Below are positions 2,600 to 45,637 of a DNA stretch of 64,000 nucleotides, one piece after another (positions within the stretch are counted from its first letter, which is position 1; every line of letters starts with the position of its first letter). The translations under genes and the position numbers were made by a program. This stretch comes from Candidatus Nomurabacteria bacterium (GTDB lineage: Bacteria > Patescibacteriota > Minisyncoccia > Phycocordibacterales > UBA918): contig JACKGJ010000002.1 in NCBI GenBank assembly GCA_020631995.1, forward strand, positions 90,773 to 154,772. The letters are read 5' to 3'. The notes beneath the pieces were generated by a model, which searched no databases, was not told the origin of the DNA, and worked only from the letters and a program-made list of their open reading frames with translations.

Positions 2600-2962
2600 A
2601 TGAATCGATCCGTACTTACGCTGGTGCTTAGCATCAGTTTTTCGCCCGCTGTCTTGGCAGAGGACTTCCACTGCCCGGTTGCATCTTGTTCGGGGATACG
2701 CCAAAACGGGAAAGGACTAGACATTGCTGTTGCAAAAGCCACTTTTGTCCACGCTGTCGAATCTGGTGAAGTCATCTTCGCTGATCGCCTCAAGCAGCAT
2801 GGTATGACCATCATCATCCGCCACAACAACGGAGGATATTCCTCCTATGGTCAGCTGGAGACTTTCCTTGTAGGGACAGGCGTTCGTGTAGGTCAAGGAA
2901 AGAAAATTGCAGTAAAATTGCCTGGCCCACCACTCTACTTCGAGTTGACTCAGCTGGAGTAA
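2600..2962 (+). CDS. Secreted LytM/M23-domain protein, probably non-catalytic
   Basis: Signal-like N-terminus MNRSVLTLVLSISFSPAVLA. M23 fold pattern IIIRHNNGGYSSYGQL...GQGKKIA...LYFEL. The expected HxxxD and HxH zinc ligands read GLD and PLYFE. Confidence 0.6.
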   Translation: MNRSVLTLVLSISFSPAVLAEDFHCPVASCSGIRQNGKGLDIAVAKATFVHAVESGEVIFADRLKQHGMTIIIRHNNGGYSSYGQLETFLVGTGVRVGQGKKIAVKLPGPPLYFELTQLE

Positions 2963-3016
2963 TGATTCTCGCCACCATTGTGAGGCTACAATCCCTCAGT
3001 TGGTGAATACAAAAGT

Positions 3017-3050
3017 GCCCTCTTGATGCTTATCTTGAGGGCCTTTTCTT
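3017..3050 (+). terminator. Rho-independent terminator after the LytM gene
   Basis: Stem GCCCTC (3017-3022) / GAGGGC (3037-3042) followed by CTTTTCTT. Confidence 0.55.
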
Positions 3051-3058
3051 ATAATACC

Positions 3059-3078
3059 AGTTAGTCAGGATTGGAATC
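3059..3078 (+). repeat. Cassette-junction repeat R1 (right-hand 20 nt only)
   Basis: AGTTAGTCAGGATTGGAATC matches 18/20 of the right part of R2. The left GTGACCCT part is absent. Confidence 0.7.
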
Positions 3079-3164
3079 TTTAAATTAAGAAAAAATTGAG
3101 ATGTATTCCCAAAACGATAAATTTATGACATAAATACCCTGGATTAATATACGGAGGTTAACCA

Positions 3165-8103: not shown

Positions 8104-8195
8104 TCACATCAGGCCCGAAACTGAAGCAGTTCAGTTTCTACACAAGAAAACACTACCTCACGGAGAAGTAGTGTTTTCTTGTGTGCCTGATGTGA
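8104..8195 (-). other. Compact three-way-junction structure in the tRNA-Glu 3' trailer
   Basis: Stems 8104-8114/8185-8195 (11 bp), 8117-8125/8130-8138 (9 bp) and 8140-8156/8168-8184 (17 bp). Only 3 unpaired junction nucleotides. Confidence 0.3.
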
Positions 8196-8264
8196 CCCTA
8201 CAGGGAATCGAACCCTGATTTAAGCCTTGAGAAGGCTCCGTCCTAACCGTTAGACGATAGGGCC
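8193..8264 (-). tRNA. tRNA-Glu (anticodon CUC)
   Basis: GGCCCTATCGTCTAACGGTTAGGACGGAGCCTTCTCAAGGCTTAAATCAGGGTTCGATTCCCTGTAGGGTCA folds as a 72-nt cloverleaf with anticodon loop TTCTCAA. CCA is not encoded. Confidence 0.9.
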
Positions 8265-42375: not shown

Positions 42376-42501
42376 CTACTTCTTTCCCTTTTTACCTGCC
42401 TTCTTGGCAAGCATTTCTCTTTTTGCTTCTAAGCGCTTCTTTGATTTATATGGACGCTTAGAAGTGTTCTTCTTTGGACTCAATGCAATTATTCGTGTCA
42501 T
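42376..42501 (-). CDS. Possible 41-aa highly basic peptide
   Basis: Own translation: MTRIIALSPKKNTSKRPYKSKKRLEAKREMLAKKAGKKGKK. Below the track cut-off, no SD seen. Confidence 0.3.
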   Translation of the reverse strand: MTRIIALSPKKNTSKRPYKSKKRLEAKREMLAKKAGKKGKK

Positions 42502-42625
42502 GTCGAACAGTATATATTAATTTTGGTTGGTAGTTAAGGTGTTTTCTGGGAGAATGTTGAAACTTTTTATATAAAAGCAGCCCACAAACGTAGTCGTGGG
42601 ACTTACGCTTATGGGCAGTCTGTAA

Positions 42626-43078
42626 TCATCGAGGGAAACCAGCATCCTTCTGCCAGGTCCAACCTGCTGTTGCTAGTCCAGTCAGAAGTCCTCCGTTGTA
42701 TAAGTCCATGCGAATCCATTTCGCAGCAGCGATGCTGTATAGAATGGCCAGACCATGAGCGATTTCCTTCTCAGGTAGGTCTGGAGAAAGAGCGATACTG
42801 TCTTGCTTCCATGCCTCCATCTCGATCAGGGTAGGAATTCGTCGCTCGGCAATAAGCTTTTGCAGATGGATTCGGGCATCTTCCACTGAAGCCTCAATTT
42901 CTTCTTCATCCATGTCGAGTATCTCTGCTGTGCTTGTGTAGCTGTGTTGTCTTACAACTACCAAAACAAGAGGATGAAGTTCAGAGGGCATCAAATGAAA
43001 CATCGCCGCTATTTCTTCAGGCAAAACATGAGCCTTACCTGGATTCAGAATTGCTGTCGAAAAAACGTCACTGAGCAT
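42626..43078 (-). CDS. Hypothetical protein with sigma-70 region-4-like HTH (G+C-rich one-gene module)
   Basis: AGGAGG SD before ATG 43076-43078. LMPSELHPLVLVVVRQHSYTSTAEILDMDEEEIEASVEDARIHLQKLI resembles sigma70_r4_2. The terminator is homologous to that of cassette 2. Confidence 0.5.
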   Translation of the reverse strand: MLSDVFSTAILNPGKAHVLPEEIAAMFHLMPSELHPLVLVVVRQHSYTSTAEILDMDEEEIEASVEDARIHLQKLIAERRIPTLIEMEAWKQDSIALSPDLPEKEIAHGLAILYSIAAAKWIRMDLYNGGLLTGLATAGWTWQKDAGFPR

Positions 43079-43314
43079 TATGACCTCCTAAGTCTTGTTT
43101 CGTCTGTTAGTGATACTACAATAAAAACTCAAAATGTCTAGCTCCGCGGGAAGGAATTTCTTTCATTACATGAACGGTACAGGTTGTCACGATTTTTCAT
43201 ACTTCAAAATCGCAGGCAACCTTTTCGAATCCTGACGGAAGTGACGCAGGTCACTTCCTCCCGCGTAGCATTAAAATCAAAGACCACACAAAGTGTGGCC
43301 TAAGATTTTATATG

Positions 43315-43607
43315 CTCCGCGGGCAGGATTCGAACCTGCGACCAATCGATTACACGAATCCCAATGTTTCCAAAGGGCGTGGACTATATCATCACCCACT
43401 AGGGGTGGAAGGCGCTTCCCCGGATTTCTCCGAGTACTCCCGTTAGGGATAGTCTCTGAACCTTTCCTTTGATTACTCTCCGGACTTGGCTGCTGATTGC
43501 CCACGGCTTTACGTTTGGGTTCCCAGCAGTTCACCTTCTTTTCGATCTGGATTACTCCAGAAAGCTGCCTTTGACAGTCGACCGCTCTACCGCTGAGCTA
43601 CCGCGGA
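43315..43607 (-). tRNA. tRNA-Asn (anticodon GUU) interrupted by a group I intron
   Basis: Exon 1 43574-43607 is TCCGCGGTAGCTCAGCGGTAGAGCGGTCGACTGT. Exon 2 43315-43352 is TAATCGATTGGTCGCAGGTTCGAATCCTGCCCGCGGAG. Joined, they give a 72-nt cloverleaf with loop CTGTTAA, a U1-A72 pair and G73, like bacterial tRNA-Asn. Confidence 0.85.
43353..43573 (-). ncRNA. Group I intron, 221 nt, no ORF
   Basis: The 5' exon ends in U and the intron ends in G. GCAG near the intron 5' end can pair with exon CUGU (P1 with a U.G pair). Conserved core strings GCAGCCAAGUCC and GUUCAGAGACUA with the complementary AUAGUC (P7), as in the Tetrahymena and Azoarcus introns. Confidence 0.85.
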
Positions 43608-43700
43608 ATATCCTTAATCTGCGGTATTAGATTAAGTACGCACATTCTACAGAAAAACTGAATTGTTTCAACTTTACCAATAGTGTATATTACGCTCTCT

Positions 43701-43771
43701 GGGCCCATAGTATAGTGGTAGAACGAATCCATGGCATGGATTAGGTCCGAGTTCGATTCTCGGTGGGTCCA
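43701..43771 (+). tRNA. tRNA-Ala (anticodon GGC)
   Basis: GGGCCCATAGTATAGTGGTAGAACGAATCCATGGCATGGATTAGGTCCGAGTTCGATTCTCGGTGGGTCCA has anticodon loop ATGGCAT and the G3:U70 identity pair. The D-stem is imperfect. Confidence 0.8.
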
Positions 43772-43806
43772 CTTAAATGAAGAATCGGTCATGCTAAAAT
43801 CCGATT

Positions 43807-44469: not shown

Positions 44470-44705
44470 AAACGTCGCTCGTCCTATCTATCGCCGCAGG
44501 GACGAGGTGTTAGTCGAGCGAACCCGGCGTTTTTGCTAGCTAAGATGTCGGCCACCGCCGACGCAACTTATAAAAGTCGCATCCATCTCCGCGACAGGGT
44601 CGTCGGAGCTGACTTCGACATTGCTAGTAAAATTGACATTTAAAGATTTAATTGTTAAGTTTTGAGTTGGGTTTGTTATCTACAGAAGCAGAAAAGGAGA
44701 GCGTG

Positions 44706-45134
44706 ATGTCATTCATGCGAGCTGCCAGATCAACTTTGTCCCACTATATGGAGATGGGAAAAATCAGAAATACTGATTCTACAATCCGTCTCAAAACTTG
44801 GTTGGAAGAGTGTGGTTACTGTGTCTTTGATGTTAGTCAAAAAAGACAACGCTCTAACAGCGACATTGTGGCTGTTCTTCCCAACGACCCAACTTCATCA
44901 GTTTGGATCTATCAAAGAAAGAGCGATGACAAGTTTGTTGTACGCGCGTTCGTAAATCACTGTGCGTATAACAATTTATACGAAACTCTTTGTCGTTCAT
45001 CGTCTGAGATGGATATGAGTGACATCTCTTTGGTGCAGGGAGGAACCTTGAGTCTTCGTGAGGCCGAGAACGCTTGGTTGTCATGGCTTTCCGAAGCTTC
45101 AATGCAGAAAGCTCGAGCTCTCGAGCTTGTCTGA
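44706..45134 (+). CDS. Hypothetical protein, paralog A (possible PD-(D/E)xK-like fold)
   Basis: AAGGAGAG SD before ATG 44706. RLKTWLEECGYCVFDVSQKRQRSNSDIVAVLPNDPTSSVWIYQRKSDDKFVVRAF aligns with the next ORF. Confidence 0.5.
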   Translation: MSFMRAARSTLSHYMEMGKIRNTDSTIRLKTWLEECGYCVFDVSQKRQRSNSDIVAVLPNDPTSSVWIYQRKSDDKFVVRAFVNHCAYNNLYETLCRSSSEMDMSDISLVQGGTLSLREAENAWLSWLSEASMQKARALELV

Positions 45135-45241: not shown

Positions 45242-45637
45242 ATGATCAGGACAAATAAGTCACGAGTTGTTCGGAAGTCTCCTGTGGCGGAAAAAATGGA
45301 GAGGTTGCGCCACCTGCTTGGAGAGAAAGGATACTGGGTGTTTAGAGTCAGTCCTAAACTTCGCAAAACGTCTCTCGACATAGTTGCGGTGGAAAAGGAC
45401 TATCCTCCCGTTTCTTACTGGCTTTATCCAACAAAAACCGGAAGAGTCGTTGTTAGGGCATGGAGGATACGTAAAGGAGCCTCGCAGGAGTTTTACAGCA
45501 ATATACGCATCCCAGATAGAGAGCGTAAAGCGCTCAAACTACTGCGTAGTTCGCCAATGCCCGAAACATCTTCTTGGCACAATTGGCTTACTAAGGACTC
45601 TAAGAAGGAGGCTGAACATCTCAAGGTTAGAATGTAA
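45242..45637 (+). CDS. Hypothetical protein, paralog B
   Basis: RLRHLLGEKGYWVFRVSPKLRKTSLDIVAVEKDYPPVSYWLYPTKTGRVVVRAW aligns with paralog A, and both share a W..WL C-terminal motif. Confidence 0.5.
   Translation: MIRTNKSRVVRKSPVAEKMERLRHLLGEKGYWVFRVSPKLRKTSLDIVAVEKDYPPVSYWLYPTKTGRVVVRAWRIRKGASQEFYSNIRIPDRERKALKLLRSSPMPETSSWHNWLTKDSKKEAEHLKVRM

Follow-up and report, generated by a model that had tools for sequence, protein, structure and literature searches.

A conserved, folded non-coding element of about 130 nt beside tRNA genes in Patescibacteria

The tRNA-Asn locus

A stretch of core chromosome from a Candidatus Nomurabacteria (Patescibacteria) genome, 64,000 nucleotides long and referred to here as the window, carries on its minus strand a tRNA-Asn(GUU) gene (43607-43315), which is interrupted by a 221-nt group I intron and followed by a short non-coding element and a one-gene module with an open reading frame (ORF) of 150 aa, the ORF150 module. 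Fragments of the tRNA-Asn 3' end and a hairpin in this region had been read in an earlier note as tRNA-derived repeats beside a small foreign-looking cassette. The fragments are not random tRNA debris; together with the hairpin, they form one ~130-nt non-coding folded element, here called a type-A unit, which is inserted just after the tRNA gene and which is a member of a conserved family with strong structural covariation in four helices. The observation behind the earlier note is real, and its interpretation is partly supported. Loci of relatives or strains that were compared with the window carry L-numbers (L001, L008, L085 etc.). The features of the tRNA gene and of its 3' flank are the following:

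43574..43607, minus strand: 5' exon of tRNA-Asn(GUU); the two exons, once joined, are identical to the intronless tRNA-Asn gene at L008.
43353..43573, minus strand: group I intron in the anticodon loop of tRNA-Asn, at position 35/36 (82.8 bits and E 1.5e-19 with Rfam RF00028; boundaries from the comparison with L008).
43314..43352, minus strand: 3' exon of tRNA-Asn, whose final 15 nt (43314-43328) are copy 1 of a direct repeat.
43272..43313, minus strand: spacer that holds a terminator-like hairpin (stem-loop at 43281-43301 and a T-run after it; terminator scan), part of the 173-bp insert.
43141..43270, minus strand: type-A unit of ~130 nt (covariance model R1, 122.6 bits, E 4e-30); no other copy occurs in the window.

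The tRNA-Asn gene of the window is not called by ARAGORN because it is split by the intron. The intron matches RF00028, and its exons join to a normal tRNA-Asn(GUU); it belongs to an already described class, the group I introns at position 35/36 of Patescibacteria tRNA-Asn (PMC13011429, 2026), and is not the new finding.

Anatomy of the element

As had been noted earlier, the 15-mer at 43141-43155 (GCTCCGCGGGAAGGA) repeats the end of the tRNA-Asn gene at 43314-43328 (GCTCCGCGGGCAGGA) in 14 of 15 positions, in direct orientation and 173 bp apart. From base composition, 0.002 matches with at most one mismatch are expected in the whole window, and 4e-6 on the same strand within 300 nt. Copy 1 spans the T-stem 3' strand, the acceptor 3' strand, G73 and C74, and the repeats do stem from the tRNA-Asn 3' end. 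The claim of an inverted T-arm between the two copies holds for one half: the 11-mer TTCGAATCCTG (43224-43234) matches 43324-43334 exactly in reverse complement (1.5e-4 expected by chance within 300 nt), whereas the other half, read as GCAGG with a 7-nt insertion, lies in a helix that varies within the family (P3) and is probably a coincidence. Of the supposed arm, only GTCAGGATTCGAA is invariant across the family. The 9-bp hairpin GGAAGTGAC/GTCACTTCC is present at 43237-43258. An 11-nt inverted repeat, 43141-43151 and 43259-43269 (91% complementary), had been missed, and it is this repeat that makes the whole 130 nt a single unit: the 15-mer is its 3' end, the inverted end is its 5' end, and the 9-bp hairpin is its helix P2. 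In the direction of the tRNA, the unit consists of these parts:

43259..43269, minus strand: element 5' end GCTACGCGGGA, the 5' strand of P1 and reverse complement of the tRNA acceptor 3' strand.
43237..43258, minus strand: hairpin P2; 9 of 9 pairs are changed on both sides in the family, and 96.6% of cells are paired.
43224..43236, minus strand: invariant GTCAGGATTCGAA, an inverted copy of the T-loop and the T-stem 3' strand of the tRNA, unchanged in 18 of 18 seed sequences.
43181..43223, minus strand: long hairpin P3, with the outer stem AAGGTTG/CAACCT and the inner stem CGATTTT/AAAATCG; 14 of 14 pairs are changed on both sides.
43162..43174, minus strand: hairpin P4 TTCATGTAATGAA with the loop UGUAA, supported by family covariation.
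43141..43155, minus strand: direct repeat copy 2 TCCTTCCCGCGGAGC, the element 3' end and 3' strand of P1; the flank beyond it is the one that follows the tRNA in L008.

In the window, P1 is thus formed by the ends, and P2, GTCAGGATTCGAA, P3, GTACCG, P4 and GAAATTCCT lie between them. The general order in the family is an acceptor-complementary 5' strand that includes G73 and C74, P2, GUCAGGAUUCGAA, a two-part P3, GUACYG, P4, GAAAUUCCUG and the acceptor 3' strand up to position 74. In this order, GUCAGGAUUCGAA is an invariant part and corresponds, in reverse complement, to the T-loop and the T-stem 3' strand of the tRNA. The window element can accordingly be read as a reverse-complement copy of the tRNA-Asn 3' end that is split by P2 into GCTaCGCGGGA and GTCAGGATTCGAA. 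In silico, P1 together with a CAGGA/TCCTG stem reproduces the T-stem-to-acceptor segment of the tRNA gene and covaries with the tRNA.

Compared with shuffled sequences, 43141-43270 folds with z-scores of -4.9 (minus strand) and -6.9 (plus strand). The window shares an A at position 43267 with L001, L004 and L086 (minus-strand reading GCTACGCGGG); in the strains L002 and L003, a C restores a P1 base pair there, so that the end stem is perfectly paired. The spacer hairpin, the tRNA end and the element 5' end join into one long palindrome, and the long hairpin at the spacer gave a spurious miRNA-like Rfam match. No ORF of at least 40 aa is present in the 158 bp between the repeats. A pseudo-tRNA or second tRNA was considered and rejected: neither ARAGORN nor the Rfam tRNA family (RF00005), even at E up to 10, finds a cloverleaf in 43141-43270, and the arms of the element are unrelated to those of tRNA-Asn.

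A family with covarying helices

Distant relatives, located through the neighbouring uracil-DNA glycosylase gene, have the same arrangement after their intron-containing tRNA-Asn. The acceptor stem of this tRNA differs (CCGGGGGAGC versus CCGCGGAGC), and both ends of the element are altered along with it, while P2 has another sequence and the same pairing. A pattern search with the two invariant blocks, GTCAGGATTCGAA and GAAATTCCT separated by 50-80 nt, returned 20 stretches from GTDB species genomes (about 18 of them from Patescibacteria or recognised as units by model R1, with L014 and L015 matching by chance), 52 stretches from JGI metagenomes and none from viral contigs. The covariance model R1, built from 18 sequences, identifies 103 copies in 76 sources, essentially all of them Patescibacteria.

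In the R1 alignment, 94% of helix cells are standard pairs, versus 36-48% when the partners are slid by 1-3 columns; changes on both sides occur in 31 of 35 pairs, and there are 745 double-sided changes versus 211 +/- 12 in shuffles, figures that are somewhat inflated by the fitting of the alignment to the model. An independent MAFFT/RNAalifold seed of 18 sequences already has compensatory changes in 26 of 35 pairs. The family-invariant blocks measure 13 nt and 9 nt.

Rfam 15 yields for the window only spurious snoRNA and miRNA matches (E at least 1.5) and for the units of L038, L045, L056 and L081 no match. Membership in known RNA families (Y RNA/YrlA, ribozymes, riboswitches, bridge or omega RNAs) was rejected, as none matched at E up to 10. 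A literature search for the element returned the intron paper only and no published description, and the family is apparently undescribed so far.

Placement beside tRNA genes and an empty site

Thirty-three units lie 15-62 nt 3' of a tRNA called by ARAGORN on the same strand, most often tRNA-Asn, and otherwise Lys-CTT, Ala-TGC/GGC, Ser-GGA, Val-GAC, Ile-GAT or Tyr-GTA; some further units follow intron-split tRNAs. Among 82 distinct upstream contexts, a tRNA T-arm is found within 115 nt in 35, another unit in tandem in 14, a tRNA-3'-like motif (type B, described below) in 17 and another context in 16. Each unit starts with the reverse complement of the last ~15 nt of its own tRNA and ends with a direct copy of them, so that the 3' tail is specific to the preceding tRNA (Asn, Lys, Ala, Ser or Ile). 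The pairing of the ends covaries as well: the longest end helix has a mean length of 7.24, versus 5.14 +/- 0.16 after the partners of different copies have been shuffled. Directly upstream, 61 of the 82 distinct units have a terminator-like hairpin and T-run; in the tRNA-Lys arrays, the spacers are short, and no terminator separates the units from the tRNA. The genes beside the units are housekeeping genes (HPF, Fpg, Fmt, PDF, glutaredoxin).

An empty orthologous site is present at L008, where the glycosylase is 83% identical and the tRNA-Asn is intronless with the same promoter region. There, tRNA-Asn is directly followed by TAGACATTTTCAC, whereas in the window it is followed by 173 bp and then TAGACATTTTGAG; the L008 tRNA end is joined straight to TAGACATTTT, the flank after the duplicate of the window. 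Since the same flank follows the L008 tRNA and the window duplicate, the 173 bp, i.e., terminator plus unit, are a repeat-bounded indel. Other loci give further signs of movement. Two identical units have different flanks on one contig (L021, L027). Within a tandem array of L045, no such identity is seen: its units vary in sequence, which argues for repeated insertion and against recent tandem duplication.

The ORF150 module and possible tRNA-anchored cassettes

The association of the repeats with a small cassette, proposed earlier, needs to be divided. Variable modules do follow tRNA-Asn, but the repeats enclose the 173-bp non-coding piece, and the ORF150 module lies outside this insert, beyond the duplicate, with its promoter-like site abutting the repeat. 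The signals described for the module are all present:

42626..43140, minus strand: ORF150 module, with the promoter-like TAGACA-16-TAGTAT at 43113-43140, AGGAGG at 43084-43089 and a 150-aa orphan ORF at 42626-43078.
42538..42600, minus strand: terminator-like hairpin of ORF150 at 42581-42600, then a degenerate type-B motif at 42538-42568 (terminator scan; alignment with L085, L008 and L010).

The description of the module as G+C-rich does not stand, the difference from the window being marginal (47.5% versus 44.2% G+C). ORF150 has no Pfam family above threshold, and the homologues found are all at least 86% identical. The window contains no good repeat copy that would bound the module: no further 15-mer with up to three mismatches occurs in the right orientation, and the degenerate motif at 42538-42568 is undetected by an nhmmer type-B profile. 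A far boundary of the module at this motif is hinted at, visible only in the pairwise alignment with L085.

Support for the cassette idea comes from relatives. A motif of ~30 nt that resembles the tRNA-Asn 3' end (type B; AAGTTCTAACATCCTCCCACRCGGCGAGC, variant GGTTCGAACGTCCTCCACCCAGCGGAGC) ends successive one-gene modules there, in arrays of two to five motifs on the same strand:

L008, 1232-1264 and 1875-1907: type-B array.
L062, 3027-5595: type-B array of five motifs.
L043, 2631-6686: type-B array of four motifs.
L061, 703-2388: type-B array of three motifs.
L026, 5504-7523: type-B array of three motifs.

Each successive module begins right after ...AGC, often with TAGACA, and the junction AGC|TAGACA recurs in L008, L010 and L085. 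The modules are shuffled between genomes in an integron-like layout with no visible integrase: a CYTH-like module occupies the second position in L008 and the first in L010, and the ORF150 homologue of L085 is followed by a type-B motif and then by a gene different from the right-hand neighbour in the window. Type-A units, in turn, occur in tandem arrays and at the heads of small-cassette arrays. With the arrays and shuffled modules of relatives, the cassette idea gains independent support; the stretch that follows tRNA-Asn is a hotspot where small gene modules are shuffled, and the ORF150 module is likely the first gene cassette after the tRNA.

Two further small coding regions lie near the module and the tRNA gene. 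After the degenerate type-B motif, 42376-42501 (minus strand) holds a lysine-rich ORF of 41 aa (MTRIIALSPKKNTSKRPYKSKKRLEAKREMLAKKAGKKGKK), downstream of which stands a terminator-like hairpin of its own. Past the uracil-DNA glycosylase gene, the sequence is variable, and here two neighbouring short ORFs at 44652-45134 and 45242-45637 (160 and 131 aa, neither matching Pfam) resemble tandem paralogues; L059 has a comparable ORF of 138 aa at 2666-3082.

Other observations at tRNA loci

In relatives, a free-standing HNH ORF of 105-118 aa is located just upstream of the intron-bearing tRNA-Asn, a layout that resembles collaborative homing:

L005, 382-699: HNH ORF.
L027, 3691-4008: HNH ORF.
L044, 1372-1719: HNH ORF.
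L076, 534-890: HNH ORF.

The window has no HNH ORF at the corresponding 43613-43700, and its tRNA-Ala(GGC) at 43701-43772 is inverted relative to relatives that have the ORF. A tie of the type-A unit to the group I intron or the HNH gene was rejected, since units also follow intronless tRNAs of other specificities.

Several independent metagenome assemblies break exactly at the T-arm or 3' end of tRNA-Asn (contig ends of L004, L005-L007 and L086; window 43314-43340), as is expected if this ~30-nt sequence has more than one context in the sample. Units and intron-split tRNA-Asn genes break metagenome assemblies at the tRNA end and are overlooked by standard annotation. At L038 (768-3125), two tRNA-Asn genes with unit copies are inverted around a central palindrome (1912-1981), which looks like an inverted duplication of the whole locus. 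Isolated transposases near units comprise one of the IS110 and one of the IS30 family. The former, a 345-aa transposase gene of L084 (679-1716), lies inside a type-A unit that is split into the halves 565-637 and 1948-2020, which suggests that a unit can be the target of an insertion sequence.

At tRNA-Glu (8193-8264), the sole other near-copy of the 3' 15-mer in the window (2864-2878) is on the opposite strand, 5.3 kb away and has two mismatches; this is chance level, since equal or higher numbers of matches arise in 39 of 100 shuffles. The surroundings of tRNA-Glu contain no type-A unit.

Possible explanations: recombination module or tRNA mimic

The explanation that we prefer, and to which we give slightly less than an even chance, is that the element is a non-autonomous, att-like recombination or insertion module which acts at the DNA level. 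In the mechanism that we infer, the two ends of the element, in single-stranded DNA or in a cruciform, would fold so as to replicate in duplex form the segment of the tRNA gene from T-loop to acceptor. The enzyme would be encoded elsewhere, most plausibly as a tyrosine recombinase, and could bring this replica into pairing with the real end of the tRNA gene. Insertion would rebuild the tRNA 3' end, add a new terminator and leave the 15-nt direct repeat, with ORF150 as the first cassette of a tRNA-anchored array. An empty or excised junction is predicted to read ...CCTGCCCGCGGAGC joined to TAGACATTTTGAG, and a circle or tandem junction ...TCCTTCCCGCGGAGC joined to ATATAAAATCTTAGG.

A role at the DNA level is favoured because the terminator directly upstream leaves no room for a promoter, because the share of G-U among the paired cells is low (2.3%, with 1.5% A-C, versus 8% G-U in the tRNA stems of the same loci), because both ends copy the local tRNA gene, and because of the indel relative to L008 together with the cassette context. 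Units may, on this explanation, mark sites where small gene cassettes are swapped. A wider version is rather doubtful: an unrecognised integron-like cassette system on Patescibacteria tRNA genes, whose site would be a folded single strand of ~130 nt (DNA, possibly RNA) with a tRNA-replica stem, whose cassettes would end in a ~30-nt tRNA-like repeat, and whose recombinase would be encoded elsewhere.

Several observations weigh against a recombination module. The single comparison with L008 fits a precise deletion between the repeats equally well, so that insertion and deletion are not separable. All five of five same-species contigs have the insert with identical flanks, and there is therefore no sign of recent mobility in the species. 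No excised, circular, plasmid- or phage-borne copy was found in viral contigs or in phage and plasmid collections, and the surroundings of the units show no recurrent recombinase or transposase: the 327 neighbouring ORFs clustered into housekeeping families only. The copy number per genome is apparently low, with one copy in the 64-kb window. Units of the tRNA-Lys arrays are probably co-transcribed with the tRNA. In the count meant to assign the strand, G-U is ahead of A-C only slightly (66 versus 42, or 1.6 to 1), and the invariant unpaired motifs (GUACUG, the UGUAA loop) would suit an RNA with tertiary contacts equally well.

The main rival, which we regard as possible but on balance unlikely, is a structured RNA that mimics the acceptor and T-stem of a tRNA. 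Such an RNA would be transcribed with or after the tRNA and excised by RNase P and RNase Z, since P1 with the CAGGA/UCCUG helix imitates an acceptor-T minihelix, and, in the manner of plant mitochondrial t-elements or mascRNA, its role could be that of a decoy, a substrate or a signal for processing. What looks like direct and inverted tRNA fragments would then simply be the two strands of P1, and the arrays would result from tandem duplication and concerted evolution with the neighbouring tRNA. Strong covariation of four helices around invariant unpaired motifs speaks for an RNA, as do a fold far stabler than shuffles, the slight excess of G-U over A-C and a GA...GA arrangement, typical of RNA motifs, retained at the tip of P3. 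The constant orientation and the distance of 15-62 nt from the tRNA point the same way, and so does the lack of terminators in the tRNA-Lys arrays. On the other hand, 74% of units have a terminator-like hairpin and T-run 0-5 nt upstream and no promoter, and the G-U share falls short of that in the tRNAs of the same loci. Moreover, P1 pairs G73 and C74 too, and hence there is no free tRNA-like 3' tail; no Rfam family matches; and a mimic gives no reason for a stem that copies one particular neighbouring tRNA, nor for the empty site.

An inert scar, i.e., the leftover attL/attR of an integrase island or prophage in tRNA-Asn from which nearly everything but a tRNA 3' fragment and att-arm DNA was deleted, is improbable. 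A direct repeat of a tRNA 3' end beside a variable gene region is the classic signature of an island, and phage attP sites do carry tRNA T-arm sequence, e.g., in the Rhodococcus phage Mbo4. A scar should decay freely, however, whereas the same ~130-nt architecture recurs 103 times with compensatory changes and with invariant blocks of 13 and 9 nt, and units stand after seven tRNA species with their ends matched each time; no larger, integrase-bearing intermediate occurs in ~70 loci. An origin from a phage or plasmid was likewise rejected, as viral contigs gave no match and phage and plasmid collections matched the tRNA T-arm only. Finally, a chance resemblance between the flank and the tRNA end, although helped by the palindromic acceptor core CCGCGG, which inflates apparent inverted matches, can practically be dismissed in view of the expectations within 300 nt (4e-6 for the 15-mer, 1.5e-4 for the exact 11-mer) and of an arrangement kept across species with differing acceptor sequences.

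Patescibacteria have tiny genomes and are thought to be poor in mobile elements and regulatory RNAs. An element that copies the end of its tRNA would, if att-like, represent a new way to target recombination to tRNA genes and to swap small genes; alternatively, it would be a new class of tRNA-mimicking RNA. Either way, gene flux or RNA biology becomes concretely testable in a phylum that is largely uncultured, and a covariance model, more than 100 copies and one pair of empty and filled sites are at hand.

Comparison with known systems

Williams reportedly described in 2002 that tyrosine-integrase elements insert into the 3' ends of tRNA genes, with one class of sites reaching from the T-loop to the 3' end. 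The window resembles the att duplications of such elements in that the repeat covers the T-stem 3' strand to the tRNA end, the tRNA is regenerated with a new terminator, a relative has an empty site, and variable genes lie downstream. Two hallmarks of an integrase island are thus found, a repeat nearly identical to the tRNA 3' end (14/15, 173 bp apart) and, in one comparison (L008), an empty site with the same flank, whereas an integrase with cargo between the repeats is absent. The repeat-bounded segment differs from tyrosine-integrase elements in being 173 bp long, non-coding and highly structured, with an inverted copy of the tRNA end and no integrase in or near it.

With miniature inverted-repeat transposable elements (MITEs) and repetitive extragenic palindromic (REP)-like elements, the unit shares small size, lack of coding capacity, strong folding and terminal inverted repeats (11 nt). 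Unlike these, it has a low copy number, a strictly tRNA-adjacent position and a fixed orientation, and its ends match the target rather than the ends of a transposase's element. In place of many dispersed copies with short target-site duplications, there is one copy in 64 kb with a 15-nt tRNA-matching repeat, and a parent insertion sequence is not known for the element.

Known tRNA-like processing elements and mimics include the plant mitochondrial t-elements, mascRNA and the bacterial YrlA. Like them, the unit would have an acceptor-like stem stacked on a T-stem-like helix, and it lies beside tRNA genes. Unlike them, it has no canonical T-loop or D-arm, its stem includes positions 73-74, it has no Rfam match, and a terminator usually stands directly upstream.

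Integron attC sites are defined by conserved folding and by bulged bases in a stem formed by their ends, and they stand in arrays between shuffled one-gene cassettes (PMC3053210, PMC7439510). The unit is similarly conserved in structure and variable in sequence (covariation of P2, P3 and P4), its two ends likewise form a stem with bulged bases, and small one-gene cassettes are shuffled here as well. Unlike in attC, no R''/R' core boxes (RYYYAAC, GTTRRRY) are seen by inspection, the element ends being GCTCCGCGGGA and TCCCGCGGAGC; each cassette has a promoter and a terminator of its own, a tRNA gene serves as the anchor, and the type-B repeat at cassette ends is a short tRNA-like sequence, not a hairpin. 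No intI occurs among the recurrent neighbours of units, the Pfam view of the window being limited to 25 of 73 families.

In CTX-phi, a folded single-stranded attP mimics the chromosomal dif site and is recombined by the host XerCD (PMC3442271). Comparably, two inverted segments of the unit can pair in silico into a duplex imitation of their chromosomal target, which would make a recombinase of its own unnecessary. The target differs, a tRNA gene end instead of dif, and so does the size, 130-173 nt instead of a phage genome. By analogy, the folded attP of CTX-phi and the integron attC appear to come closest to the type-A unit. Its kind, tRNA-targeted site-specific insertion with an att repeat, would be a known one, and its form a new one: tiny, non-coding, strongly structured and matched to the tRNA at both ends.

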